Source: Escherichia coli (lineage in GTDB: Bacteria; Pseudomonadota; Gammaproteobacteria; Enterobacterales; Enterobacteriaceae). Taken from it: 64,000 bases of DNA. Positions 20,128 through 46,049 of the stretch are shown one piece after another. Numbering within the stretch: position 1 is the first letter of the stretch; each line of letters begins with the position of its first letter. The position numbers and the translations under genes are program-made. Below the pieces are notes generated by a model. It made no database searches. It had not been told where the DNA came from and saw only the letters and a list, made by a program, of their open reading frames with translations. The stretch lies in NCBI RefSeq assembly GCF_051903065.1, contig NZ_CP178438.1. One strand, written 5' to 3'.

Positions 20128-21006
20128 TTATTTCAGCGTGCCGAACTGTTTGTCTTTCAGTGCATATAGTCGGTCGAACTCAGCATAGGGCTCTCCCGTT
20201 TCAGCCGCGTGCCGGGTTTTAGCATCCAGAAGGTCGGGTAAAGGGATCCTATGATTCAGTGAGTGGTAAAGATCATAACCACTGACACAGATAACCCGCT
20301 TCCCTTTACCAAAAGCCGTCAGGCCTTCAGGCGTAAAGCCCATCCAACTGATAAAAACACCGCGTGTCCAGGTTGCCTTGGTACTGAGCTTTCCTTCAAA
20401 TACATGGAGGTCGGCAGCCGACGTTCTTTTCTGATGCCACTTTGCCTCCATCAGGTAAAATTCATCATTCAGTCGGAAACTTCCGTCAATCTGTTCGCCT
20501 GTATTTCGGAAAGACGAACGGGGAGCAAGCTTAAAGATACTGAACAGTTCAGCAAGCCAGGCTTCAAACCGAAAACCACGTGGATGTGGCGGCAGAGATT
20601 TCATCTCGTTCATTTCAGCGATAAGTGAATGCCAGTCAACACCATGCCATGCCTGGACAGGCTTAACGCCTTTGGCTTCATCGGTGTCAGCGTTTTCTAA
20701 GCGGGAAATCAGTGCAAGATAGTCATTACGGCTTTGTTCAGCCTGTTCAGGCATGGATTCCGTTTTATACTGCCAGAGCGCACCAAGAACCCGCAGAGCG
20801 GTCTCACGATCAACCTGTTTCAGCAAGCATCTAACTCGTTTGGCTTTTGACGTCCCCTCTTTCTGATAACGTTCATCATCAATATCAATGTTCAATTCTT
20901 CATCGAAAAAAGCAGACAAGGTGCGGTTAGAGAAATCCAGTATCCAGCCAGGATCGCTCTCGAACACAATATTAAACAGCCTCAAATCCTGCATTTTCAG
21001 TTTCAC
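20128..21006 (-). CDS. Mrr-like restriction endonuclease-fold protein with unknown N-terminal domain
   Basis: 292 aa; C-terminal …[25 protein letters not shown]… is a PD-(D/E)xK (D…E-A-K) core resembling the Mrr catalytic domain; N-terminal 130 aa unassigned. Confidence 0.55.
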
Positions 21007-30925: not shown

Positions 30926-31410
30926 AACTGGCCCTGACGCTGGAAGCCGACAGCATTAACGTGCAGGCACTGAACATGGGGCGCATTGTCGTTGACGTCG
31001 ATGGTGTTACTCTCGCTGAACTGATTAACGTGGTCTGCGATAACGGTTACTCCCTTCGTGTTGTTGATGAATCTGACCGGACATCAGCAGAGCGCACGCC
31101 ACCATCTGCGGCCCTTACCGGCATACGCTGCAGTACCGCACATATCACGGAAACGGACAATGCCTGGTTGTACTCGCTGTCAAATCAGACGAATGACACC
31201 GGCGAATCAGAATGGATTCATTTCACAGGTAGCGGATATCTGTTACGTACCGATGCGTGGTCATACCCGGTTCTGCGGCTTAAACGCCTGGGGCTGTCCA
31301 GAACGTTCCGCCGTCTGGTTGTCACACTCATCCGGCGTTATGGCGTCAGTCTCATTCATCTGGATGCCGGTGCTGAATGTCTGCAGGATTTACCCACTTT
31401 CAACTGGTAA
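30922..31410 (+). CDS. YeeW-like protein
   Basis: ATG overlaps the cbtA stop (ATGA); 162 aa; position and sequence consistent with YeeW. Confidence 0.55.
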   Translation: MKLALTLEADSINVQALNMGRIVVDVDGVTLAELINVVCDNGYSLRVVDESDRTSAERTPPSAALTGIRCSTAHITETDNAWLYSLSNQTNDTGESEWIHFTGSGYLLRTDAWSYPVLRLKRLGLSRTFRRLVVTLIRRYGVSLIHLDAGAECLQDLPTFNW

Positions 31411-31429
31411 CCAGGACAAAAGACACAGG

Positions 31430-31627
31430 ATGAAATCATTAACCACAGAAACGGCGCTGGATATTCTGATTGTGTGGCTGCAGGACAATATCGACTGCGA
31501 ATCGGGAATTATCTTTGACAACGATGAGGATAAAACGGATTCGGCAGCACTGTTGCCCTGTATCGAACAGGCCAGGGAGGGTATCCGTACCCTGCGCCAA
31601 CTGCAGCTTCTGCACCAGAACCGATAA
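31430..31627 (+). CDS. Small hypothetical protein (65 aa)
   Basis: ATG 31430 (MKSLTTETALDILIVWLQDNIDCESGIIFDNDEDK…); the longer track ORF 31058-31627 overlapping yeeW is rejected. Confidence 0.4.
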   Translation: MKSLTTETALDILIVWLQDNIDCESGIIFDNDEDKTDSAALLPCIEQAREGIRTLRQLQLLHQNR

Positions 31628-32098
31628 ATATTACTCACCATACTTCATTCCACTGACGCCAGCCTGAACAGGGCTGGCGTTTTCATTTATCTGCAAAAAG
31701 GAATATCAATTATGTCTGAAATCACAGCCTCCCGTCCGGAAGTGGTCAACGGGGACATTATCTGCTCCACCTCAGTCAGCCACATTCTGGCTGTACAAAA
31801 GAGTACACAGCTGCAAATCGACACACTTATCCGGCATCAAGTGAGCGATATCAGTTAACAGATATAGATGGAGAAGATGCTTTTATCCGGATTGGTTCTA
31901 TCGCGATGGTGCGAGTACTACTTGATGCAATGAAGCCTGTCGAGGAAGATGACGAGTAACAGAGCTCGGTATCTCAATCAGGAGCTGATTGTCCTGGTTC
32001 GATGCCGAAAACCAGTGATTTTTCGTGTTGGTATCTGTGTTGGTATAAGATGATATTGTTTATTATTAACAATTTTAAATCATGAGGTTAAGTCACAT

Positions 32099-32122
32099 GT
32101 TCGAGTCCGGCCTTCGGCACCA
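32099..32122 (+). repeat. 24-bp copy of the tRNA-Leu (leuX) 3' end: island boundary direct repeat
   Basis: GTTCGAGTCCGGCCTTCGGCACCA equals the leuX T-arm/acceptor 3' end (from memory); no D-arm or anticodon arm upstream, so it is an att fragment, not a tRNA gene. Confidence 0.65.
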
Positions 32123-32346
32123 CATCGTATGCAAATCGAGTCGCTCAAGGGCGGCTTTTTTTGTGTCTGGAATCCGTTAGTTACCTATCTTTCTCGCTAT
32201 TTTAACTCTCTCAGAGCCAGCCAATTTCAACCCATCGCAAACGAAAAATGTTGGTACAGGCGTTGGTATTTTCGGTTCGACATTAATTTGTATTAGCTCA
32301 GTCCTGATCTGACAGCTATCTGCCAGATCAGGTTCGGATTAATACA

Positions 32347-35300
32347 TTATATCTGCCCGCCTACACCTTTAAACTTCTCAATAAACGCGACGATCTTCTG
32401 GAAAACCGTCTGTTTTTTCGTCTTATATTGCGGATTTAACGGACTGAGTTTTGGCAATGTCTCGTTTAATTCCGTGCCATTTTCGGTTGCGTATTCGCGT
32501 TTTAAAGACGTGCGAATATAGCGTTTCGCCGCCTCTTCATTGAGATTTTCTTCTTTGATCAATGCTGCTGCTTCACGTTGCTGTTCGCGTTGAGCAAAGG
32601 TAAAAAACGCGTCAATGATGCTGGCTTTATCCGGCAAATCATCCAGGTTCGTTTGCTGAATAAAATCGACCACCAATCCTTCTTTGGCACGGTTCCCAAG
32701 GCTTGAACGAATTAAGCGTTTGACCTCTTCGGTCATTTCGCCCTTACCTTTGTTTTGTCTGTTGTGTTCGAAAATCAGTCCAAGGATATAATCCAGGTTT
32801 ATTTCCTGAGACTTCAGCAAATCGACCTCAAAAACCACGTCATCCCAGTCGGTGGTTGATTTTTCTTTTTTGTCAGCTTCTTTCTCACGGCGCTGCCAGT
32901 CACGAATATCGTTATAGGCTGAACGGTAATCCTGAATCTTGCGATCAGCAGGGAGACGAATCGTTTGTAATTCAGCGAACTTTTCATCATCCACATAATG
33001 TTCTGCTTTGAATTTTTCTACCGCAACAGGATCGCTAAGATCGATTTGTTGCAGGGCTTTCAGCATGGCAAATTCATCATAGTTTTGCAGGATGTTCTCG
33101 GCACGCAGGTATTCACCAAACAGTTTTACGAAGTCTTTCTTCTCTTTTTCACTTTCAATATTGGCAGGGTCAGGGAACCGTTGTTCCAGTTCTGAAACTA
33201 CTGCCATAAAGCCGCGTTTAGCTTCACCAGTGGCAGCATCAGTAAAGCCTTCCATATACTCTGCATAACTCTTTTCTAACACCACATTTTTGGTATTTTT
33301 ATCACCAAACAGCGTTATGGCATCAATGGTTGAGCGTTCCAGATCCCGGAAAGTGACGATGTTACCGAAGGTTTTAGTGGCGTTATAAATGCGGTTGGTG
33401 CGGGAAAATGCCTGCATCAGGCCGTGAAAACGCAAGTTTTTATCGACGAATAGCGTGTTCAATGTTGGAGCATCGAAGCCGGTTAAAAACATCCCCACGA
33501 CAATTAACAGATCGATATCTTGATTTTTAACCCGTTGGGCTAAATCACGATAGTAGTTCTGAAAACCGTTACTGTCGGTGCTGAAGTTAGTTTTAAAATA
33601 GCTGTTATACTCACGAATTGCAGCGTCAAGAAACTCTTTAGCACTGCTGTCCATTGCGCTGGTATCAAAAGTTTCATCGGAAATTTCACCAATGGCATTT
33701 TGCTCTTCATTGGCGGCAAAGGAGAAGATTGTCGCAACACGCAGCGGTTTATAAGTAGCCGATTTATTAGCTGCTTCCTCTTGTAACCGTTTAAACGTAG
33801 CGTAATAGGCTTTCGCGGCATCCACGCTACTCACTGCCAGCATGGCATTAAAGCCTTTGGAACTTGGGAAAGTACGGTGGGTCTTCTGGCGGAAGTTATT
33901 CAGAATATATTGCGTAATTTCCTGTATACGCATGGGATGAAGAAACGCCTGCTGATTTTCAGCCGCACTCAGTTTTTTCTCGTCGGTTTCTGTCTCTAAA
34001 GACTTAAACTGTGGCCGCACATCGTTGTAGTCCACCTTGAATTTGAGCACTTTTTCATCACGAATCGCATCGGTAATCACATATGAATGCAATTCACGAC
34101 CAAATACGCTGGCGGTCGTTTCTGAGCCTAAAGCGTTTTCCGGGAAAATAGGGGTACCGGTAAAACCAAACTGATAATAGCGTTTGAATTTCTTCTTCAG
34201 ATTTTTCTGCGCTTCTCCAAACTGGCTGCGGTGACATTCATCAAATATAAACACCACTTGCTGATTGTATACAGGCAGGTCGCTTTCTGCTTTCATCAGG
34301 TTATTAAGTTTCTGAATAGTGGTGACGATAATTTTGTTATCGTCCTTATCCAGATTTCGTTTAAGACCTGCTGTATTTTCCGAGCCGTTAACACTATCTG
34401 GCGAAAAACGCTGATATTCCTTCATGGTCTGGTAATCGAGGTCTTTCCTGTCGACCACAAAGAAGACTTTATCAATAAAGTCCAGTTCTGTTGCCAGACG
34501 TGCGGCTTTAAAGCTGGTCAGGGTTTTACCAGAACCGGTTGTGTGCCAGATAAAGCCACCGCTTTCGGGGGTAGACCAGTTTTTCGCTTTATAGGAGCTG
34601 TTGATTTTCCATAAGATACGCTCAGTGGCGGCAATCTGGTACGGTCGCATCACTAGTAGCGTTTGGCTAATATCGAACACGCTGTAGTTCACTAAGACAT
34701 TAAGCAGAGTATGTTTCTGGAAAAAGGTAGCGGTAAAGTCTTTGAGGTCTTTAATCAGCGTGTTGTCTGATTTCGCCCAATTCATGGTGAAATCAAAACT
34801 GTTTTTATCGCGCTTTGTGGTGTTGGCAAAATAACGGGTATCGGTGCCGTTAGAAATGACAAACAGTTGCAGATACTTAAACAGGGAATTTTCGCTGTTA
34901 AAACTCTCTTTACTGTAACGATGTATTTGGTTGAAAGCCTCACGAATCGCCACGCCGCGCTTTTTCAGTTCGATTTGTACCAGTGGTAAGCCATTAACCA
35001 GGATCGTGACGTCATAACGGTTAGCATGAGAACCCGCCTGTTCAAACTGCTGGATAATCTGCACCTTATTGCGCATGAGATTCTTTTTATCTATCAGATA
35101 GATATTTTCAAGACGCCCGTCATCAAAAATAAAGTCGCAGATATAGTCGATATGAATTTTACGGGTTTTATCCAGGATGCCATCGCTGGGGTTGTCCAGA
35201 TACTGCTCCGTGAAACGCCGCCACTCGCTGTCATTAAACACCACACCATTGAGGTTCTGAAGCTGTTCCCGAACATTGGACAGCATCGCCGACTGTGATT

Positions 35301-35463
35301 TTACCGAAATAAATTCATAGCCCTGATTCCGCAGGTCCTGAATCAGTTCCCGTTCCAGGTCCGATTCGCTCTGGTAGCTGTCGCCTGTTTGCTCAGCTTT
35401 GATGTACTTATCAAGGACGATAAAGTTATTGGATTCAGCAATGGTGTGTGTTTGATGAGTCAT
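32347..35463 (-). CDS. hsdR: Type I restriction enzyme R subunit (Type IC, EcoR124-like HsdR)
   Basis: 1038 aa (same length as EcoR124I HsdR as recalled); helicase motifs TGSGKT and DECHRSQ. Confidence 0.95.
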
Positions 35464-35584
35464 AGCGCATCCTTTGTGCCGCCTGGCAAGGGCCGGAAGG
35501 GCGTTAAGAGTGACTTCCGGCGCGTAAAAAATAGTCTATATACAGACCGGGTGTTAAGGTGGCCCGGTCGGTAGCAATGGTCAA

Positions 35585-36865
35585 TTAGTTACTGATAGTT
35601 TCAGGTTTGGGAAAACTGAACAGTAAATCACGATAGTACTCGTATTGTTTCTGGCGCAACTCGATTTCACGCGGGAGGCCTTCGGTGATGGAGTTTGTCA
35701 GAGTGTCGAATTTATCGAGTATTGCGACGATACGAGCTTGTTCCTTAAGTGATTTTTCGTGATCTTTAGGATATGGAACCGGAATCATAATTTTTGAAAA
35801 ACCATTAATGAGTAGTGTATTAACTTTTGTTCTGGCTACATACTTTGCTTTTTCAGAAATAAACGAATCGGTTTGCATGTAATAGGAAATAAATTTTGGA
35901 TTCAAAGAATGTCGAAAAGCATAACAGTGATCATGAATAGCGATATCGTCATCCCCAAGCCATGCCACTGCTTTACCAACGTCTTCTACAGTCTCCCCCA
36001 CGTCAGTTATCACGACATCTCCATGTTTGGCATAGCGTAATGACGCTGCCATATCAGCTCTAACCTGTGATAACGAATGAGTTGTGTAAACACCATATCG
36101 TGTATATATCTCACCATAATGGATTACACTGATACCACCATCTTCTACATAATCTGCTTTAGTAAAACGTTTTCCACGAATAAACTCACCAATTTCCCCC
36201 AAAGTCTTCCACTCAACCTCACCCTCTTTAAAACTCAACAACTGGTCGCGATAGTAGTTGTACTGTTTTTTACGCATGGTAAGCTCTGCTGTAAGCTCTG
36301 CTGTAAGCTCAGTAAATTTATCCAGAATCCGAACGATTTCAGACTGGATGGCAAGGGATTTTTCCGGATTGCCCGGGCAGGGGATGGGGATGAGTAGTTT
36401 TGACATCAATGCATTTGAGCTTAGATTCGGCTGTGCTCCGCCCCCTGCAAGGATATAAATAGTCTCTGTATTTAACAATAAAAAATGGTATAAATAATTA
36501 TTGTTTAGAATATTTTCTTTGGGTATAAATTTCCCAACACGTTGGTTAAGATAACATTTTATTCCTTTTTTATAAATTCCCACTTTTCCTGTAGTGGCAC
36601 CTGACATTGCAATCAATATATTTCCCATAGATACCTCAAAGGAGGATAAATCTTCCTTGTAATCATTTAGTGAAAAGTATTTCACCTCATCTAAGTCAAC
36701 ATTAAACCCATCTATATTTGTGATTCTAACTATCGGTAACCCAGTTTCTTTAAATAAGCTGCTTTTAAATGCAAATCCATTTTTAAAATCACAAACATCC
36801 TTCAGGGTTTTCCACTCAACCTCAACCCCATCCAGCAATTTTTCCAGATAACTCAACTCGCTCAT
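35585..36865 (-). CDS. hsdS: Type I specificity subunit HsdS (Type IC)
   Basis: Two target-recognition domains separated by the conserved …[23 protein letters not shown]… region with the TAEL repeat; ATG overlaps the hsdM stop. Confidence 0.9.
36279..36310. repeat. 12-bp tandem repeat in hsdS (TAEL repeat, 2 copies plus a partial)
   Basis: GTAAGCTCTGCT x2 then GTAAGCTC on the plus strand, encoding TAEL-TAEL in the HsdS central region. Confidence 0.7.
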
Positions 36866-38416
36866 TTCTGCACCCCGCAGCCTTCAATTTCAGCCACAAT
36901 CGCATCAATATCTTTGCGCAACTGGTCGATTTTGCTGACCGTGGTTTTCAGCTCAGCATTCAGCTCACCGATATCGATAATTTCGCGAGTATCTTTCGCT
37001 TCAACATAGCTGCTCACCGACAGGTTATAGTCATTCGCTACAACGGCTTCAAACGCGACAGATTTCGCCAGATGAGCAACATCTTCCTTGCTGGCAAATA
37101 CCTGCATAATCTGTTCGATATGGGCATCGGTCAGGATATTGTTGTTGGTCTCTTTTTTGAACAGTTCGCTGGCGTCAATAAACTGAACTTTGGTATCGGT
37201 TTTATGTTTAGACAGCACCAGAATATTGACGGCAATAGTGGTGCCAAAGAACAGGTTCGGTGCCAGTGAAATCACGGTTTCGACATAGTTATTATCGACC
37301 AGATACTGACGGATTTTCTGCTCCGCGCCGCCACGGTAAAAAATACCCGGGAAGCAAACAATCGCAGCGCGACCTTTGGCCGAAAGATAGTTCAGCGCAT
37401 GTAGTACAAAGGCGAAGTCAGCTTTGGATTTGGGGGCCAGGACGCCAGCCGGGGCAAAACGTTCATCGTTAATCAGCGTCGGGTCATCGCTGCCAATCCA
37501 TTTCACCGAATACGGCGGGTTAGAAACGATGGCATCAAACGGTTTTTCATCTCTGAAGTGCGGCTCAGTCAGTGTATTGCCCAACTTGATATCAAACTTG
37601 TCGTAGTTGATGTTGTGCAAAAACATGTTCATACGCGCCAGGTTATAGGTCGTATGGTTGATCTCCTGACCAAAAAAGCCTTCTTCGATGATATGGTCAT
37701 CAAACTGCTTTTTCGCCTGCAACAACAGCGAACCGGAACCTGCGGCCGGGTCGTAGATTTTGTTAACGTGGGTCTGCCCGTGCATAGCCAGTTGTGCAAT
37801 CAGCTTAGAGACGTGCTGCGGTGTAAAGAACTCGCCGCCTGACTTACCAGCATTCGCGGCATAGTTAGAAATCAGGAACTCATAGGCATCGCCGAACAGG
37901 TCAATCTGATGTTCGTTAAAGTCGCCAAGCTTTAACCCTTCAACCCCTTTCAGAACCGCAGCCAGGCGGGCATTTTTATCCTTAACGGTGTTACCCAGGC
38001 GGTTACTGGTGGTATCGAAATCAGCAAACAAACCTTTGATGTCAGCTTCTGAAGGGTAACCGTAAGCAGAACTTTCGATAGCAACGAAGATGCTGTTTAA
38101 ATCTGCATTCAGTCTGTCATTGGTATTTGCTTTCGCAGCTACGTTGCAGAAAAGCTGACTTGGGTAGATGAAGTAGCCTTTGGTTTTGATGGCATCGTCT
38201 TTAATGTCATCAGTTATTACGCTGTCATCCAGTTTCGCATAACAGATACTGTCATCACCGGCTTCAATATAGCTGGAAAAATTTTCGCTGATAAAACGGT
38301 AGAAAAGCGCGCCCAGAACGTATTGCTTAAAGTCCCATCCATCGACCGAACCTCTGACATCGTTAGCAATTTGCCAGATCTGGCGATGAAGCTCCGCGCT
38401 GCTGAAGACTGGTCAT
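36862..38416 (-). CDS. hsdM: Type I methyltransferase HsdM (Type IC), apparent frameshift near codon 8
   Basis: C-terminal 389 aa intact (NPPY motif, …[11 protein letters not shown]…). ATG 38416-38414 with AAGGA RBS reads MTSLQQR, but the conserved …[23 protein letters not shown]… continues in another frame. Confidence 0.8.
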
Positions 38417-38722
38417 TTTTTATCCTTTGAATGTGTTTTTAACGTCGGCTTTTGCCGGGATTTTACCGGAAGTTGTTTGGTTTTTCAGATTTGTATGACG
38501 GTGAGGAGGGGATTCAGTACCAGATTGTTAGTGCATCTTACTCAGCATTCACCGCTTGAGTCAGGAGGCTACTTTATATGCCCATCGCCCATCCGTAGGT
38601 GATCAGATAATTTATTGCGAGTCACCTTCCCGATTTTCAATCTCATTATTTACCCAATCTTTCACCAGTGGATAATTCGTCTGCTACTAACGGCGAGTGT
38701 ATTTTTTTACGGATGAAAGATT

Positions 38723-39556
38723 ATGCAAACAGAAGCTGAAGTCTTAACCGATCATAACGAACTAATTTGCTCGACCAGTATTGAGCGTATCGTCACAGGA
38801 CGTGATAGTGCACTGAACCAGATAGCGGCGTTAATCCAAAAGCTTGATGATATCTCCAGCCTGACATCCAGTATTGGCGGTGATGTGGCTGGAACCTGGG
38901 CAATGCGTAATGGATATGCCTTTGATTGCTGGCTGATGCAGCCAACCGACAAAGCGATGCCGGTGATCACCCGAAATATCGATCGCAGTATCTGGCGCGA
39001 TCTCATGCTGAAGTCCGGTATGTTGACTCTGATGGATGCCGAAGCTCGCAGTCAGTGGGCAAAGAATCTGGAGGAGGGCGATCTCCCGGCGATTAGCGAA
39101 GCCAACATCCTGAGTACCTTTGAACAACTTCACCACAATAAGCAGGATGTTTTCGAACGTGGGATTATCAATGTATTTAAGGGATTGAGCTGGGATTACA
39201 AAACCAATAATCCCTGTTATTTCGGTAAGAAGATTATCGTTAACAATCTGGTGAAGCATGACCGATGGGGCTACAGCCTGCACTGGGGCTGGCGGCGAGA
39301 TCAGCTTGCCGATCTGGAACGGATGTTCTATCTGCTGGATGGGAAGGTCATTCCCGATAACCGGCATGATGTTGCGATTCGGTTTATGGACTTCGTTAGT
39401 GCTCACCCGCATGAGCAGGTATTTAATGACGATTTATTTGTCATCCGCTATTACCAGAAAGGCAGTGGGCATATCACATTCAAGCGACTGGATCTGGTGG
39501 ATAAGATGAATGACATTGTGGCGAAGCACTATCCGTCAGCGTTATCAGCAAAATGA
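38723..39556 (+). CDS. Hypothetical protein (277 aa) upstream of the McrBC-like pair
   Basis: ORF with ATG start, same strand as the McrBC-like genes, separated from them by about 360 bp; no catalytic motif recognised. Confidence 0.5.
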   Translation: MQTEAEVLTDHNELICSTSIERIVTGRDSALNQIAALIQKLDDISSLTSSIGGDVAGTWAMRNGYAFDCWLMQPTDKAMPVITRNIDRSIWRDLMLKSGMLTLMDAEARSQWAKNLEEGDLPAISEANILSTFEQLHHNKQDVFERGIINVFKGLSWDYKTNNPCYFGKKIIVNNLVKHDRWGYSLHWGWRRDQLADLERMFYLLDGKVIPDNRHDVAIRFMDFVSAHPHEQVFNDDLFVIRYYQKGSGHITFKRLDLVDKMNDIVAKHYPSALSAK

Positions 39557-39914
39557 ATGTCGTATGTTTGCTGTCAATAATGTCGTTACTGGAACCCTCT
39601 GAATTTCGGCATATCCATTTACTGGAAACGATGTTTACCTAAAAACAGTTGATTCCCTATGCAACTAGAAACCTCACACAGGTTGAAAAACGAGTAGCGA
39701 TTTTACGTATGAAAGAATGCTATAGCCTTCTCTGAGAGCCATCAACATCATGCGTTTTGCAGTTAAGTCATCAGATAAATGTGGTGGCTCCAGGGCAGAA
39801 GGTAATTTCAGGATGAAAGTTATTTTTTTTATCACAAAATTTAACATTTTTGAGATTAATCCGATAAGATAAGGCTATCCCAATTTCCCTCCCCCCTACA
39901 TATTGGATTAAGAG

Positions 39915-41969
39915 ATGGTTCAGGATTCATCAGCATTAGCCCCCTTCTTTCGTGCTCAAATTGAAAAAAATAATCAATACAATTCAGTTTGGGGCAAACA
40001 CTACCGCCAGCTTGTAGAACAGATTCAGGCCGAAAAACCAAACTTTTCTGAAGCCACGATTCGGCAGGTATGGTATGAACGTGACAATGGTGTCTCCAGC
40101 CTGATGCAAGGAGGGATGTCATTGGTTGAATTTGAAAATGCACAAAAAGACCTTCTAACGCTCACCCGTCAGATAGCAGAAGAGTGTACACAAGAAAATT
40201 ATAATCGGGTCATTGAACGCCTTATCAAACTTAAAGCGGACGGAGTATTAAATAAGGTATATAGGGCTCTTTGTAATCGTGCTTTTGCAGCAATATACCC
40301 ATCAAAAATTAGCAGTGTCGTGAATGTTAATAATTTTTTTAGTTGCTACAATTATTGCAACAACCATTTCCAGCTAGGTCTTTCCGGAGAACGGGAGTGG
40401 CTGGCTCGCAATGTTGATCTTAAAGAAACGCTAAATCGTGCGCTGGGTGATGATATCGACCCTATTGAGCTGAATATGTCACTTTGGCATCTCTATGCGT
40501 ATGAAATTCAGGATAAAAATGCTATCGGTTTAGTTGGAAGCGAAAGTGCTTTACAAGAAAATGAGCAAGAAGATGATGTTATAAGTTCGCCATTGCCTAA
40601 AAACACAATTCTCTATGGCCCGCCAGGTACAGGTAAAACATATCGTACTATTGAGCTTGCTGTACAAATTTGTGATCCGATCGCTTACTCCCTGCAGGAG
40701 GGTAAGGATGAGAGTGAAAAACGTCGCGAGTTGAAAAAGATTTATGATCAGCTTATCAAAGAAAATCGAGTGCGTTTTATCACCTTTCATCAGAGCTTTG
40801 GTTATGAAGAGTTTATTGAAGGTTTAAGAGCTGAGACTACTGATGACGGTAATGTAAAATACGAAATAAAGGCAGGTATTTTTAAGCAGATATGCGAGGA
40901 TGCCGCCTTTGGTCATGCTGGTGCGCAGGAAATGTTAGATAGCGCACTTACTCGCCTACAAGAACGTTTATCTGAAGGTGAAAATATCACGCTGGAAACA
41001 CAACAGGGTAAGGCCTTCCAGCTGACGTATAAAAGTCAAACCAACTTTGGAATTTTCCCGTCACAATCGAAAAAAGAGGATTTAGGACAGGGTTACAATG
41101 CCTATTTGAAGGATATTCGGCAAGTTTATCAGGATCCACGAGCAAAAGTACATAATCCATCTTATGTACGCAGTATCCTTAACTATTTAATTAATCAACG
41201 TTATCTGCCTCTGAATACTCAGAGCGTAGCTTCAGAAAAAAAGGAAAACTATGTTCTCATTATTGATGAAATAAATCGGGGTAATATTTCAAAAATTTTC
41301 GGTGAACTAATTACCCTTATTGAGCCATCTAAACGGGCTGGTGAGCCAGAATCGCTTAGCGTATTGCTGCCATACTCTTCCACTCCATTTAGTGTGCCGA
41401 ATAACCTTTATTTAATTGGTACCATGAACACTGCTGATCATTCGCTTACTGCACTTGATACTGCACTACGTCGCAGATTTGATTTTGAAGCGATGCTGCC
41501 AGATATTACTGTTCTGAAAGATACTGTCATTAAAGGTATTGATCTGCCTCGTCTATTGCAGACGCTTAACGATCGCATCCAGGTTTTATACGATAGAGAA
41601 CATATGCTGGGGCATGCTTTTTTTATCCCTGTTGTGCAGGCAAAAGAAGACGAAGCTCTGGCATTTGAAAGATTCAAACGGATTATGCGAAATAAGATAC
41701 TACCATTGCTGGAAGAATATTTTTACAATGACTGGCAAAAAATTCGCATGGTACTGGCTGATAACCAAAAAGAGGAAGCACCAGATCTTCAATTTGTACG
41801 TGAGGTGAAATACCAGAAAAAGTATGCCGATCTCTTTGGTGATAACGGAACAGATGACTTGGGAACCAGTTTTCACCTGGCAGCAGAGGATGACAACGTT
41901 TGGGACAATCCAATCGCCTGGCAGCAAATTTATGCACCTCAAAAAGAAAAACGCAGGAGTGCGGAATGA
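39915..41969 (+). CDS. McrB-family AAA+ GTPase with non-canonical N-terminal domain
   Basis: 684 aa; Walker A LYGPPGTGKT, Walker B LIIDEINRGN, McrB-type GTMNTAD motif; the first ~230 aa is a helical region of unknown type. Confidence 0.85.
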   Translation: MVQDSSALAPFFRAQIEKNNQYNSVWGKHYRQLVEQIQAEKPNFSEATIRQVWYERDNGVSSLMQGGMSLVEFENAQKDLLTLTRQIAEECTQENYNRVIERLIKLKADGVLNKVYRALCNRAFAAIYPSKISSVVNVNNFFSCYNYCNNHFQLGLSGEREWLARNVDLKETLNRALGDDIDPIELNMSLWHLYAYEIQDKNAIGLVGSESALQENEQEDDVISSPLPKNTILYGPPGTGKTYRTIELAVQICDPIAYSLQEGKDESEKRRELKKIYDQLIKENRVRFITFHQSFGYEEFIEGLRAETTDDGNVKYEIKAGIFKQICEDAAFGHAGAQEMLDSALTRLQERLSEGENITLETQQGKAFQLTYKSQTNFGIFPSQSKKEDLGQGYNAYLKDIRQVYQDPRAKVHNPSYVRSILNYLINQRYLPLNTQSVASEKKENYVLIIDEINRGNISKIFGELITLIEPSKRAGEPESLSVLLPYSSTPFSVPNNLYLIGTMNTADHSLTALDTALRRRFDFEAMLPDITVLKDTVIKGIDLPRLLQTLNDRIQVLYDREHMLGHAFFIPVVQAKEDEALAFERFKRIMRNKILPLLEEYFYNDWQKIRMVLADNQKEEAPDLQFVREVKYQKKYADLFGDNGTDDLGTSFHLAAEDDNVWDNPIAWQQIYAPQKEKRRSAE

Positions 41970-43276
41970 AATCTTCCAGTCATTTCACTGTGTTCGAATA
42001 CGGGCATTTAGTGAGTGAGGAAGGTGATGCCCGTATAAATAATGCGGTAGTGCTACCTGCAGACCTATTTAAATGGCTTGAGCTGCGCTGTCTGAAAGAC
42101 GATGCTGATAATACTCATCGTTTGCTCACCCTTAGCAGCCGGAATGGAGTAAAAACGCTGCAGGTAAAAAACTATGCAGGAGTAATCTCACTGCCAGGGG
42201 GGCGATTTCTCGAAATCCTGCCTAAAACAGGTCAGGATAATGAGGATACTGTTCGTCAACAAATACTGATGATGTTACGTACGTTAAAATCATTTCGTCA
42301 TATTGCCTCCTCTGAATCTGGCGTCAAAATATCTAAAATGCCTCTGATGGACATCTTTATTCAACAATTTATAGAGAGCGTGCGTAAGATTGTGCAGAGA
42401 GGGTTAAAACGTGACTATTTACGTCAGGAAGATAATCTTCCATGGATAAAAGGAAGATTACGGATCTCTGCACAATTAAGCAAAAACTGTATTAGGCGGG
42501 ATCTTTTTCAGGTGGAGTATGACGAGTACAGCGTCAATCGTCTGGAAAACCGGATACTCAAAACTGCAATCAATAAGATTAGTCGCCAGACCAGTAATCC
42601 ACAATTATTACAGCAGATAACACAGCTGCAGTTTCACTTTGAAAATATCACGTCAGTTCATGATGCTTATATAGCTTTCGAGCAGTTACACTTTGATAGA
42701 CACATGCATCACTATGAGCAAGCATTAGCGTGGGCGAAGATGATTTTATTGGGCGATTCTCCACACTGTATGTATGGGGATGTTAATGCTTTTTCACTGC
42801 TTTTCCCGATGGAGGCTGTTTTTGAATCTTTTGTGACGACATGGATGCGTTATCGTTATTATGATAAATGGCGAGTGGACGCACAGGTAAGTTCAAAAAA
42901 TCTGATTAGTTATAACGGTAAAGCTTTATTTAAGCTGCGGCCTGATATTTGTTTACGGCCTCGTAAAAGTACTACTGGTTCAGTTATTACCTGTGATATT
43001 AAATGGAAGATAGTAAATGGCAGAAAGGACAGTCTTGAACAATCTCAAGCCGATCTCTACCAAATGCTTGCCTATGGATTGAATTACCAGGAGGGGGAAG
43101 GTGATATGATTTTGATATACCCCTATCATAACGGATTTAATCAGCCATCTCCTCATCCTTATGAATTTAGCCATCAGAAGGAAAATAGGTTACGTTTATG
43201 GGTTGTACCTTTCTTTATTGGCGAGAGTTTACAGACATCAGAGTTGCATTTTCCTAGTGGGGCTGAATTTATTTAG
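41966..43276 (+). CDS. McrC-family nuclease partner
   Basis: ATG overlaps the mcrB-like stop (ATGA); C-terminal PD-(D/E)xK-like …RPDICL…CDIKWK…; size and linkage typical of McrC. Confidence 0.75.
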   Translation: MKSSSHFTVFEYGHLVSEEGDARINNAVVLPADLFKWLELRCLKDDADNTHRLLTLSSRNGVKTLQVKNYAGVISLPGGRFLEILPKTGQDNEDTVRQQILMMLRTLKSFRHIASSESGVKISKMPLMDIFIQQFIESVRKIVQRGLKRDYLRQEDNLPWIKGRLRISAQLSKNCIRRDLFQVEYDEYSVNRLENRILKTAINKISRQTSNPQLLQQITQLQFHFENITSVHDAYIAFEQLHFDRHMHHYEQALAWAKMILLGDSPHCMYGDVNAFSLLFPMEAVFESFVTTWMRYRYYDKWRVDAQVSSKNLISYNGKALFKLRPDICLRPRKSTTGSVITCDIKWKIVNGRKDSLEQSQADLYQMLAYGLNYQEGEGDMILIYPYHNGFNQPSPHPYEFSHQKENRLRLWVVPFFIGESLQTSELHFPSGAEFI

Positions 43277-43338
43277 TATTTGTAGGCTATCTCTTTATAC
43301 AATTTATTTGTCTATTTGTATGCACAAGATAGCCTACC

Positions 43339-44268
43339 TCACCCCCTAAAAACCTCTTTCCGATGCCACTCCACAAACCCCTCAAAAGGGTAATTTTTAC
43401 GCACCTGTGGCAACGCAATAGTTTTCCCGTCAAAATCCCAGAATAATCTCTCAACGATCCCTCCGCCGTTTACCGCATCCGAGACCAGTATCCGCATATT
43501 TTCATCCAGGCCAATCGATCCTTTATCAAAGGCTTTATGGTGTATTGCGCAAAGTGCCAGACCATTGGGGATTTCACAAGGGCCGCCGTGCTGTTTCCAT
43601 TTTATATGCGCCGCTTCCAGCGCGACGGTGGTGTCGTCGTGGCGCATATTAAAGCCACATATCGCGCACTGGTATTTATAAGCGCGTAATACATTTTTGC
43701 GAAATAACGGGTCGCGCTGTTTACGGATTTGCTGGAGATCAAAACCCAGCTCGTCAGCAATTTCTTCCTGAATACTCTCGGTGAAGTGCGCTTCGAGTAT
43801 CTGTTGCGCCAGAGTATTGATGAGTTTTTTATTGCCGGTTACCAGGGCGTAGTGCTGTTCATCGAAACCGCCTGCAACGTGGTATTCGTTCAGTTCCTTC
43901 ACTGGCGGTTGTCGGCTGCTCCCTGCTGTTGAGCAACGCTCGGCATTGTGTAATTGCCAGAATCCGTCGCCTTGTAATCGCCAGAACGGCATATCAGGTC
44001 GGTACTGTGAACGCTGTGGCCCAAAACGTTCCAGTAAACTGTGCAGAGGTTCGTAGATTTCCGAGCCATAATCGAAAAGGCGCGGATGTCCATGCAGGTA
44101 TCCCGCTAATACGTATAGCAATAACAATGGCTTATGCGGCGCGCGCTGTTCACCCTTATGCCAGATTTTTATATTGGCAATTGCCTGCTGTAGCGATTTA
44201 CTGGAAGCCATTGATATCCCTGGCAGTGAAATAATTGCGATCATGCTCGCAAATTTTCTGCTGTTCAA
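43339..44268 (-). CDS. HNH endonuclease (HNH_2-type, putative restriction enzyme)
   Basis: C-terminal …YKYQCAICGF…AAHIKWKQHGGP…NGLALCAIHHKAFDKG…; about 190-aa N-terminal domain of unknown function; start may be an internal Met. Confidence 0.65.
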   Translation of the reverse strand: MNSRKFASMIAIISLPGISMASSKSLQQAIANIKIWHKGEQRAPHKPLLLLYVLAGYLHGHPRLFDYGSEIYEPLHSLLERFGPQRSQYRPDMPFWRLQGDGFWQLHNAERCSTAGSSRQPPVKELNEYHVAGGFDEQHYALVTGNKKLINTLAQQILEAHFTESIQEEIADELGFDLQQIRKQRDPLFRKNVLRAYKYQCAICGFNMRHDDTTVALEAAHIKWKQHGGPCEIPNGLALCAIHHKAFDKGSIGLDENMRILVSDAVNGGGIVERLFWDFDGKTIALPQVRKNYPFEGFVEWHRKEVFRG

Positions 44269-44347
44269 GCCTGCAAGTGAAGATATATTACTTTGATCTC
44301 ATTTGTTTTTTTGCTGCTTGTTCTGAGAACGTATAAGGACATTCTCT

Positions 44348-44998
44348 ATGAATAAACTCCCCGATCATCTTCCGCGGCGGTATATTATCGAAGCTATTCA
44401 TTTATGGGATGCGGGAGAAACTCATCAGTTCCAGCCTGCACGGTTGTATGAGATTGAATATCATGGCCGACGTTACCCCTCGAAGGCGATTGCTGGCATC
44501 GCAGCGACATTGATGACGGGGACGCAATTTACCCCTGCGGATTTCACCGGCGGAATAAAATCTAAATGCGTCAAGCTACTTATAGATCAGGGATTTCATA
44601 TTCATCAGGATAAAGCCGCTGCGGCTCCCATAGCCGATGTTCTGTTCCCGGATGAGTTGCCGTCGCAGGGGACCTACGTTGAAGGTGCGGCGATAAAGGT
44701 GACGGTAAACAGCTATGAACGCGATAAAAACGCTCGCGAGAAAGCAGTCGAATATCACGGATGCCAGTGCAACGTATGCGGCGTTGATCTGGTGAAGATC
44801 TATGGCGATATCGCTGAGGGCTTTATCCATATGCATCACCTGGTGCCGCTTTCAGCCATTAAAGAGGATTACCTGCTGGATCCAGTTAATGATTTACTTC
44901 CTGTGTGCCCTAATTGCCATGCGATGTTGCACCGACGCAAACCACCGTTTACGCCGGAGGAGTTAAAAGCGTTGATGGATGCGAATAAATCAAATTAA
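44348..44998 (+). CDS. HNH endonuclease with N-terminal putative DNA-recognition domain
   Basis: …CQCNVCGVDL…HMHHLVPLS…PVCPNCHAMLHR… is a classic HNH; about 110-aa N-terminal domain unassigned. Confidence 0.7.
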   Translation: MNKLPDHLPRRYIIEAIHLWDAGETHQFQPARLYEIEYHGRRYPSKAIAGIAATLMTGTQFTPADFTGGIKSKCVKLLIDQGFHIHQDKAAAAPIADVLFPDELPSQGTYVEGAAIKVTVNSYERDKNAREKAVEYHGCQCNVCGVDLVKIYGDIAEGFIHMHHLVPLSAIKEDYLLDPVNDLLPVCPNCHAMLHRRKPPFTPEELKALMDANKSN

Positions 44999-45005
44999 TG
45001 AACGC

Positions 45006-45986
45006 TCACCTTTCGCGCCAAAACTGCAAAATTGCTTCTACAAACTTGTCAGAAATAATCCCCCGACGGGCTGCCGCGCTGAAATGACTGCTTCGCAGTG
45101 CCGTCGTCCAGTTCTCCGGTGACCGGTACGCTGAACCGTAATATCCCGTGCTTAAATCGTCCGGATCTTCATCAGGCGCGTTCGTCAGTCCTCTTTCACC
45201 TTGTTGCTGGAAGTCGACGAAAATAATATTGGCTAAAACATTATTTTGATAATTGCCATAAATAGCTTCATACGCATGAGGGAAATTTTCTTTCCAGTAC
45301 CAGGTGGTATCGCCGCAAAACCAGGGCGCATCAGTAATATTATTAAGCTGAGAATGGTATTGTTTTAGATCCCTACGAAAGGCTTCAACCATATGATTAA
45401 AGTGTTGAGGGTGTGACGCGTAGTCACTGGTCATTAAGTCAAATTCGCCTTGCATCCAGCATACGCCGAGGAATTTGTTCTGCGGATTTTTTGCCAATGC
45501 GGCTCGCGTTCTGCTGACTAAATCCTGGTATAGCGGAGTATCCGTTCCCCAACGACAAGCATCATGGCTGGCTCCGTGCCGTTCTGAATATGTCCCCTCG
45601 CTGCCCGCGGTAAAAGCCGATCCGCCACGGCAACATGGAACGATGAGAACCCCTGCGTTATCAGGAATAAAGGGCAGTAATTTCCGTGCAATATGCAGTG
45701 CCTGGCCAATGGTGCCGTACTGTGTTTGATGATTCGTTGCCAGAGGATGGTGATAACCCTGCATATCCTGAACATCGTGTGGGCAGTGAGTCAGTGGAAT
45801 AATGTCGTTAAAGTGACATGACGGGCCTCCGGGATGCGTATGCGCAAATCTCGCTAATTGTTTAATTCTGGGATGAGGCGCATCTTCCCTGTCCGGTAAT
45901 GGCAGTCCTTCGCCATACGCCATGGCATTAGACTGACCAGCAACGGTAAGAACATAGTAATAATCGGGCGATATTATTGCGTCCAT
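45006..45986 (-). CDS. nanS: 9-O-acetyl-N-acetylneuraminate esterase
   Basis: 326 aa; sequence and synteny with nanM-nanC as in E. coli K-12. Confidence 0.9.
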   Translation of the reverse strand: MDAIISPDYYYVLTVAGQSNAMAYGEGLPLPDREDAPHPRIKQLARFAHTHPGGPSCHFNDIIPLTHCPHDVQDMQGYHHPLATNHQTQYGTIGQALHIARKLLPFIPDNAGVLIVPCCRGGSAFTAGSEGTYSERHGASHDACRWGTDTPLYQDLVSRTRAALAKNPQNKFLGVCWMQGEFDLMTSDYASHPQHFNHMVEAFRRDLKQYHSQLNNITDAPWFCGDTTWYWKENFPHAYEAIYGNYQNNVLANIIFVDFQQQGERGLTNAPDEDPDDLSTGYYGSAYRSPENWTTALRSSHFSAAARRGIISDKFVEAILQFWRER

Positions 45987-46049
45987 ATAATTTTCGCGTA
46001 ATTGAAATGATAAATTGATAGCAGGGCCCTTTACTGGGGCCCTGAAGCG

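Follow-up and report, generated by a model that had tools for sequence, protein, structure and literature searches.

Do the eight genes that separate the leuX 3′-end repeat from nanS in this Escherichia coli chromosome form a single defence system, or are they several systems that share a place? They occupy positions 32123–45005 of the stretch of 64,000 nucleotides that we analysed (the window) and comprise a Type IC restriction-modification operon (hsdM, hsdS and hsdR), a gene for a 277-residue protein, a GTPase/nuclease pair of the McrBC family, and two divergently transcribed HNH nuclease genes, one with a sulfur-binding domain, SBD (the SBD-HNH gene), and one with a head domain (the head-HNH gene). 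An initial annotation, made from the sequence and its open reading frames, had named these genes, described the segment as a strain-specific immunity hotspot directly behind the leuX repeat, and supposed that the uncharacterised members belong to a new system. All eight genes are present where it had placed them, and their identities hold (HsdR, for instance, scores 2253 bits against EcoR124I, with a self-score of 2310), as does the position behind leuX, by an exact 24-nucleotide (nt) match followed by native flank. The new system finds no support: the modules are distributed and have decayed separately, and the 277-residue protein is encoded by a mobile-element backbone gene, DUF4942.

Distribution and divergence of the modules

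The segment is quite likely a mosaic, a stack of independent restriction modules at the leuX defence hotspot and not one system. The modules appear independent because they are distributed separately and differ both in divergence and in decay. Among the 5426 complete E. coli genomes of our survey, the whole set occurs in 142, the mcrBC cassette in 315 (always on the chromosome and always at least 95% identical), both HNH genes at a coverage of at least 80% in 325, and an EcoR124-type hsdR in 1320, with 636 places on plasmids. The set is thus absent from most E. coli, and its unknown genes match no housekeeping family. The strain-specific description fits the full set, which is a minority arrangement; it does not fit the HNH pair (query 43300–45005), which is at least partly matched in 4939 of the 5426 genomes, including K-12, and is conserved flank. 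The same gene set is annotated in more than 100 RefSeq genomes.

Compared with three other strains that have the same arrangement, identity is 99.5–99.7% for mcrB, 95–97% for hsdR and 93–95% for DUF4942, and the synonymous divergence (dS) is 0.01–0.02 for mcrB versus 0.18–0.24 for DUF4942. This gap of about tenfold speaks against the alternative that all the genes, or a subset such as DUF4942 with McrBC or hsd with DUF4942, make up one new multi-component defence system. A single system would account for the tight adjacency of the genes, for the location of the DUF4942 gene 358 bp upstream of mcrBC in the same orientation, for the purifying selection acting on that gene (ratio of non-synonymous to synonymous divergence, dN/dS, 0.07–0.14), and for the recurrence of the hsd-DUF4942-mcrBC arrangement in the 142 genomes. 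However, DUF4942 copies with 87–91% identity in strain N39 and in Klebsiella have a ParE toxin-antitoxin pair and an HTH gene as neighbours and no McrBC; related copies occur in 4496 of the surveyed genomes, at a median of two places per genome, and in 4291 plasmids; and McrBC homologues elsewhere, of about 50% identity, have no DUF4942 neighbour. Neither DUF4942 nor McrC matches a PADLOC model, and McrB gives only weak matches to unrelated ones. A single new system is therefore very improbable, and the stack of independent modules is the reading that we follow below.

Edges of the variable slot

On the left, the segment begins behind a plus-strand repeat (32099–32122) that is exactly the last 24 nt of the tRNA-Leu gene leuX and identical to the annotated tRNA-Leu 3′ end in strain 23CRST027. 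One copy is present in the window, where none is expected by chance, and the window contains no complete tRNA gene. The DNA directly after it (32123–32170, plus strand) is native leuX downstream flank with a terminator hairpin (32138–32157 plus a T run), and includes a terminator-like match. This flank, the conserved left edge of the slot, is identical in 23CRST027 and a second genome (L003), where the true leuX precedes it, and is also retained in strains N39, A33 and EC26, with N39 diverging thereafter. Because the repeat is the leuX 3′ end followed by native flank, in a window without a complete tRNA gene, we read it as an attR-type scar left by the CP4-like island that takes up the upstream part of the window. 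Every CP4-like island that we compared ends with an HTH gene and then the leuX′ repeat, and in those of E. coli some 50 nt of native leuX flank come next. The content beyond the flank varies: N39 carries other genes, ET350 a Wadjet remnant, and K-12 yjhR, topAI-yjhQ-yjhP and an SBD-HNH remnant, with no hsd or mcr genes, just as the initial annotation had stated.

On the right, homology to N39, ET350 and Klebsiella, which carry other or almost no cargo, resumes at 43335–43337, three bases before the stop codon of the SBD-HNH gene. In Klebsiella (L006), 175 nt separate the leuX′ repeat from the SBD-HNH gene; in Citrobacter (L013) the two abut. Both are essentially empty slots. Because homology returns at this point and these slots are nearly empty, the HNH pair is not inserted cargo: in E. 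coli, Klebsiella and Citrobacter it belongs to the conserved chromosomal DNA downstream of leuX, as the ordinary first gene pair behind the attachment site. The variable cargo runs from about 32170 to 43335 and consists of hsdRSM, mcrBC and a DUF4942 gene that retains 107 nt of its native upstream DNA. Strain comparison, which the initial annotation had recommended for defining the insertion, leaves its left edge in place behind leuX and moves the right one, the cargo ending near 43335 and not at 45005.

Two other layouts were disproved by the mapping of the leuX′ repeat. An hsd operon inserted within a CP4-like island, between cbtA and DUF4942, was suggested by A33, but the island ends before hsdR; an HNH pair forming the terminal cargo of the island was suggested by Klebsiella, but the pair lies outside it.

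Is the segment then a mobile element in its own right, either autonomous or mobilisable (a satellite or an integrative mobilisable element), that entered leuX together with its defence genes? A start right behind a leuX 3′-end repeat, a low G+C content (43.4% in the segment versus 46.6% in the whole window) and the presence of DUF4942, typical of integrative islands, would all agree with this. However, the sole leuX repeat belongs to the upstream island, the right part of the segment is conserved flank, and in 23CRST027 and LZSFT34 the same segment lies directly behind the true leuX, with neither an island nor a second repeat. The segment also has no excisionase, relaxase or replication gene, and because it has no integrase and no second att repeat, we regard independent mobility as most improbable and keep to the description of cargo held in a slot. 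An Rfam scan of 31000–46000 at E ≤ 0.1 found no RNA family, and a promoter scan gave 26 sites where 26.0 were expected, which is uninformative on operon structure.

The position is that of E. coli defence hotspot #37, the best known in the species, which lies downstream of leuX, between lptG and uxuR (PMC12707154): 23CRST027 has the order lptF-lptG-yjgR-ahr-leuX, then this segment, then nan/fim, and uxuR lies beyond fim in E. coli GDSC2BY4G. Hotspot #37 is the most occupied of 41 hotspots, with 68% of its occupants lacking a detectable mobile element (PMC10121019), and Type IC systems are found there in 4% of genomes (PMC12707154). The published descriptions (Hochhauser et al. 2023; 2025 EcoSal Plus review) concern the same locus, from leuX to nan/fim, with stacked defence and often no recognisable mobile element, and we see no essential difference; the segment is one particular occupant, made up of Type IC, McrBC and flank nucleases. 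The initial annotation was thus right to see a dense defence locus here, although the hotspot is not a new one (PMC10121019, PMC12707154).

The Type IC genes

The cargo opens with the three hsd genes, all on the minus strand. The intact hsdR (32347–35463) encodes the 1038-residue restriction/translocase subunit of a Type IC enzyme of the EcoR124 family: the match to EcoR124I HsdR (PDB 2w00; 2253.5 bits) extends over residues 1–1038, TIGR00348 gives 757 bits, and PADLOC calls the protein REase_I. The specificity subunit HsdS (35585–36865; 426 residues) matches EcoR124II HsdS over its full length (7bst_A, 252 bits) and has the EcoR124-type central conserved regions with two TAEL repeats (36281–36313; residues 188–195). 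In an alignment with HsdS from three other strains, the target-recognition domains differ.

The methyltransferase subunit gene hsdM (36862–38416) is a pseudogene. Alignment with the intact 518-residue EC26 gene, together with three-frame translation, locates a 2-bp (GC) deletion in a GCGCGCG run at codon 7 (about 38394–38400). The frame runs into a stop after 17 codons, and a TTG at codon 130 (38031), the sole in-frame restart, leaves a 389-residue open reading frame (ORF) that scores 487 bits with TIGR00497. The identical deletion is annotated as ‘frameshifted’ in 23CRST027, a 99.9%-identical strain and an independent assembly, so a sequencing error is unlikely. The initial annotation had recognised an EcoR124-like Type IC operon correctly and overlooked this frameshift. 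A Type I enzyme requires HsdM for methylation and restriction alike; in a Type IC enzyme the M2S1 core would be needed to methylate the bipartite site and to load HsdR. Because hsdM is frameshifted and both activities depend on its product, both have most likely been lost in this strain: HsdR and HsdS have what is expected of Type IC subunits, whereas a complete hsdM reading frame is missing.

The operon resembles EcoR124I and EcoR124II of plasmid R124 in its HsdR, near-identical over all 1038 residues, in the gene order hsdM-hsdS-hsdR, and in the HsdS framework with its central TAEL repeats, the number of which determines spacer length. In contrast to EcoR124, it is chromosomal, at leuX, and probably inactive through the hsdM frameshift; and because the target-recognition domains are different, its specificity would differ as well. 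The 12-bp TAEL-coding repeat of hsdS is present in two copies here and in three in the otherwise 99.9%-identical 23CRST027, which is the classical EcoR124I/EcoR124II spacer-length switch, in this case between two strains that both have a dead hsdM.

The McrBC pair

The genes for the mcrB-family GTPase (39915–41969, plus strand; 684 residues) and the mcrC-family nuclease subunit (41966–43276, plus strand; 436 residues) overlap, the mcrC start running into the mcrB stop (ATGA). McrB belongs to Pfam AAA_5 and has a Walker A motif (GPPGTGKT, 235–242), a Walker B motif (IIDEINR, 449–455) and MNTAD (504–508). Its closest solved relative is McrB of Thermococcus gammatolerans (6ut3, 1.8e-52), followed by EcoK McrB (5.7e-30; the structure 6hz4 was also matched). 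McrC matches Pfam McrBC (PF10117) at 1e-98 and has the nuclease motif RPD (325–327)…DIK (344–346). The pair therefore has all the hallmarks of the McrBC family, and it has in common with EcoKMcrBC and the Thermococcus system the AAA+ GTPase with Walker A/B and MNTAD, the PF10117 McrC with PD…DxK, and the overlapping genes.

The N-terminal part of McrB sets the pair apart. Residues 1 to about 215 form a helical domain that, unlike the rest of the protein, has no match in Pfam or the PDB and no detectable similarity to the reader domains of the K-12 and Thermococcus proteins. A word-based homologue search gave only 10 matches to this domain, and an AlphaFold model built from 6 sequences reached a predicted local distance difference test (pLDDT) score of 44. 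In contrast to EcoKMcrBC, the pair lies at leuX and not in the K-12 immigration control region, and its scores fall far below the NCBI equivalog cut-offs (McrB, 117 bits against NF008457, cut-off 637; McrC, 107 bits against NF007277, cut-off 338); the two systems do not qualify as orthologues with the same N-terminal reader of 5-methylcytosine or 5-hydroxymethylcytosine (5mC/5hmC). If the family mechanism holds, McrB hexamers would read modified DNA through the N-terminal domain and, together with McrC, would translocate and cut using GTP hydrolysis. Because the N-terminal domains are unrelated, the modification that is read may differ from that of K-12 McrB.

The cassette (39915–43276) is at least 99% identical in 288 of the 315 E. 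coli genomes that carry it, while the genes on either side differ by 3–7%. Such near-invariance points to a recent spread of the cassette, or to repeated recombination between conserved neighbours. Insertion sequences are found in and around it in other strains: in 23CRST027, the closest relative, mcrB is interrupted and the head-HNH gene truncated at its end by IS903B copies (L001 15706–16673 and 19974–20941), both genes being intact in the window, and in LZSFT34 an IS3 lies between DUF4942 and mcrB.

The HNH nucleases of the right flank

The first gene of the right flank, SBD-HNH (43339–44211, minus strand), encodes a protein of 290 residues and 33.3 kDa that scores 439 bits with NF045808, the EcoWI family (cut-off 180), over residues 6–289. 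Its SBD aligns to residues 97–233 of ScoMcrA (5zmm); of the sulfur-pocket positions, HK is present (PHKP, 25–28) and the YP position reads MP (74–75). EcoWI cuts GpsAAC/GpsTTC DNA, is a dimer, and alone restricts dnd+ plasmids in vivo (PMC7461809). The present protein agrees with it in architecture, in size (33.3 versus 33.4 kDa), in host species and in its assignment to NF045808 of NCBIfam (Lutz et al. 2020, PMC7461809). The likeness consists in family model, architecture and size, and the Tyr of the ScoMcrA ‘YP’ is Met here; as a member of the family, the protein is expected to act like EcoWI and to cleave phosphorothioated DNA that enters the cell, close to the modified site.

The divergent head-HNH gene (44348–44998, plus strand; 216 residues) encodes a protein whose residues 24–87 align to the ScoMcrA head domain (29–93; 5zmm, whole-sequence E 1e-4). 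PADLOC matches it to PDLC03662 (1.9e-5), and its homologues carry the precomputed pair PF26345+PF01844 (ScoMcrA_N + HNH). The HNH part (CxxC…CxxC, HH…N…H) is invariant in 21 homologues and closer to E. coli McrA (6ghc) than to ScoMcrA. Judged by its domains, the protein is probably a further stand-alone nuclease.

An alternative is that the two genes work as a pair, a ‘split ScoMcrA’ in which the head-HNH protein partners or regulates SBD-HNH. ScoMcrA, a Type IV enzyme of Streptomyces coelicolor with the order head-SBD-SRA-HNH, has its head and HNH domains in common with the 216-residue protein and its SBD in common with the neighbour, so that the two proteins jointly hold its head, SBD and HNH domains; the identical divergent pairing recurs across E. 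coli, Klebsiella and Citrobacter, and in two further genomes (L029 and L050) an SBD-HNH gene is followed by another HNH gene. Unlike ScoMcrA, neither protein has an SRA domain and the domains are divided over two genes. EcoWI, moreover, is dimeric and restricts dnd+ plasmids by itself, and many E. coli genomes have one of the two HNH genes intact and its partner truncated, in both directions, which implies independent loss. Of ten full-length head-HNH loci in other taxa, eight have no detectable SBD-HNH gene within the fetched flanks of at most 8 kb on each side. The ScoMcrA head domain itself is flexibly attached, lies outside the dimer contacts and has, according to the authors of the structure, no known function (PMC6224610). 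We find a split ScoMcrA unlikely and continue to treat the two proteins as separate nucleases.

In the two further genomes, Enterobacter sp. MGH 24 (L029) and Citrobacter portucalensis (L050), the SBD-HNH gene (75–78% identical) precedes, in the same orientation, a different HNH gene, whose product resembles the 216-residue protein in its HNH half only, and Type I hsd-like genes lie nearby. This suggests a recurrent stacking of HNH nucleases with differing sensor domains.

The DUF4942 gene

Between the hsd operon and mcrBC lies the intact 277-residue gene (38723–39556, plus strand), which matches Pfam DUF4942 only. It hits 0 PADLOC and 0 NCBIfam families, so that the PADLOC run advised in the initial annotation lends it no defence role, and there is almost no literature on DUF4942. 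Its AlphaFold model has a pLDDT of 92, yet the predicted fold has no solved relative, and every match listed in a search of AFDB50 with this model resembles another member of the DUF4942 family.

The plasmid homologues, with about 38% identity, are found in 4291 of 72,556 plasmids, 3963 (92%) of which are conjugative. In the IncI1 plasmid R64 (NC_005014.1 65547–66395) the homologue lies two genes from nikA, adjoining oriT, at the edge of a leading region that also holds ssb, psiB, psiA and ardA. On chromosomes the gene lies at or near the end of CP4-like islands: in CFT073 it closes the island, behind cbtA, DUF5983 and DUF957; in N39 and Klebsiella it stands directly behind the CbeA/CbtA pair; and in Yersinia it stands two genes further on. 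Fusions of the domain with a class I DNA methyltransferase domain occur in phages and in some relatives, and from these sequences it appears to be the N-terminal module of phage orphan DNA methyltransferases.

Because it occurs by the thousands in CP4-like islands and plasmids that lack McrBC and hsd, DUF4942 is a mobile-element backbone gene and is not recognised as part of any defence system. Its role most likely lies with the mobile element, in establishment or counter-restriction, and not with host defence. That it is specifically an establishment or counter-restriction factor, and that the leuX copy is a counter-defence gene stranded between a Type I system and McrBC, is a tentative proposal that we hold to be possible rather than probable; it is suggested by the location near the R64 oriT and near the attR ends of islands, by the occurrence in about 4000 conjugative plasmids, by the phage methyltransferase module, and by a fold without a solved relative. 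CP4-like (KpLE2-type) islands carry DUF4942 together with DUF932, an antirestriction protein, RadC and CbtA/CbeA. In contrast to these islands and to plasmid leading regions, only DUF4942 and its 107 nt of upstream DNA persist in the slot, and the other backbone genes are absent.

The truncated N-terminus of a second DUF4942 paralogue is present upstream of the repeat, as a 48-codon ORF (31712–31858) with 39% identity to residues 11–45 of the intact copy. HTH gene remnants follow it, just before the leuX′ repeat, and together they form the decayed right end of the upstream CP4-like island.

Assembly of the locus

These elements can be ordered into a history, which is built on comparison of sequences, with functional roles taken from protein families. 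The frame is fixed, with leuX and about 50 nt of flank on the left and the divergent HNH pair beside nanS on the right. Into this slot would have come an EcoR124-family Type IC operon, a DUF4942 gene with its 107 nt of upstream DNA, of the kind sited near the right end of CP4-like islands, and a near-invariant 3.8-kb mcrBC cassette. A second, complete CP4-like island would later have integrated into leuX, giving the repeat at 32099. Because Type IC has most likely been lost and McrBC and the HNH enzymes are left, with the activities predicted for them, working immunity in this strain would be modification-dependent (Type IV-like).

Several points weigh against parts of this account. The origin of the solitary DUF4942 gene in the slot is argued from homology, and the stretch from this gene to the HNH pair contains no second attR. 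A restart or slippage could in principle get around the hsdM frameshift. In the SBD-HNH protein a Met replaces the sulfur-contacting Tyr164 of ScoMcrA, and the phosphorothioate dependence is assumed from family membership. Finally, the pairing of SBD-HNH with head-HNH in three genera leaves some room for cooperation between them.

The surrounding DNA

Beyond the segment, nanS (sialate O-acetylesterase; 45006–45986, minus strand) is intact and about 98% identical to the annotated nanS of ET350 and other strains; nanM, confirmed by NF010730 with 606 bits, and then nanC follow downstream. Upstream, about 1–32098 of the window is a CP4-like island in leuX. Its backbone consists of a GTPase, DUF905, DUF932, an antirestriction protein, JAB/RadC, DUF987, YeeU/CbtA, DUF5983 and DUF957, and its cargo, according to the annotation of a 99.9%-identical strain, includes a patatin-like phospholipase, a PDDEXK-like protein, a YadA-like adhesin, a group II intron, an H-NS paralogue and a separate ‘restriction endonuclease’ gene (about 20128–21006).

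E. coli GDSC2BY4G (L095, NZ_CP136025.1) matches window positions 1–25000 at 99.9%. Its leuX′ repeat is followed by an AbiJ-NTD4 gene and an ISKpn26 joined to a truncated fimH; the hsd-mcr-HNH-nan-fim region is therefore missing from the locus. K-12 (L011, NZ_CP064680.1 4525917–4526440) has, between yjhR and nanS, a remnant of about 120 nt from the 5′ region of DUF4942 beside a 206-nt frameshifted SBD-HNH remnant. The two remnants show that K-12 descends from a state with both genes.

Implications

Descriptions already exist of the hotspot, of the Type IC family, of McrBC and of EcoWI-type enzymes, and as a defence island the segment adds little to them. It does show that family-model calls of a Type I system may miss a 2-bp inactivation, since the residual hsdM ORF was still scored as hsdM. 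The leuX hotspot is framed by the leuX terminator and, at its other end, by the SBD-HNH/head-HNH pair, and this frame provides exact boundaries for cataloguing its cargo. Three of the proteins are cheap experimental targets: a McrB with an all-helical putative reader domain, present in about 6% of E. coli; the head-HNH nuclease; and DUF4942, which connects plasmid leading regions, integrative islands and phage methyltransferases.

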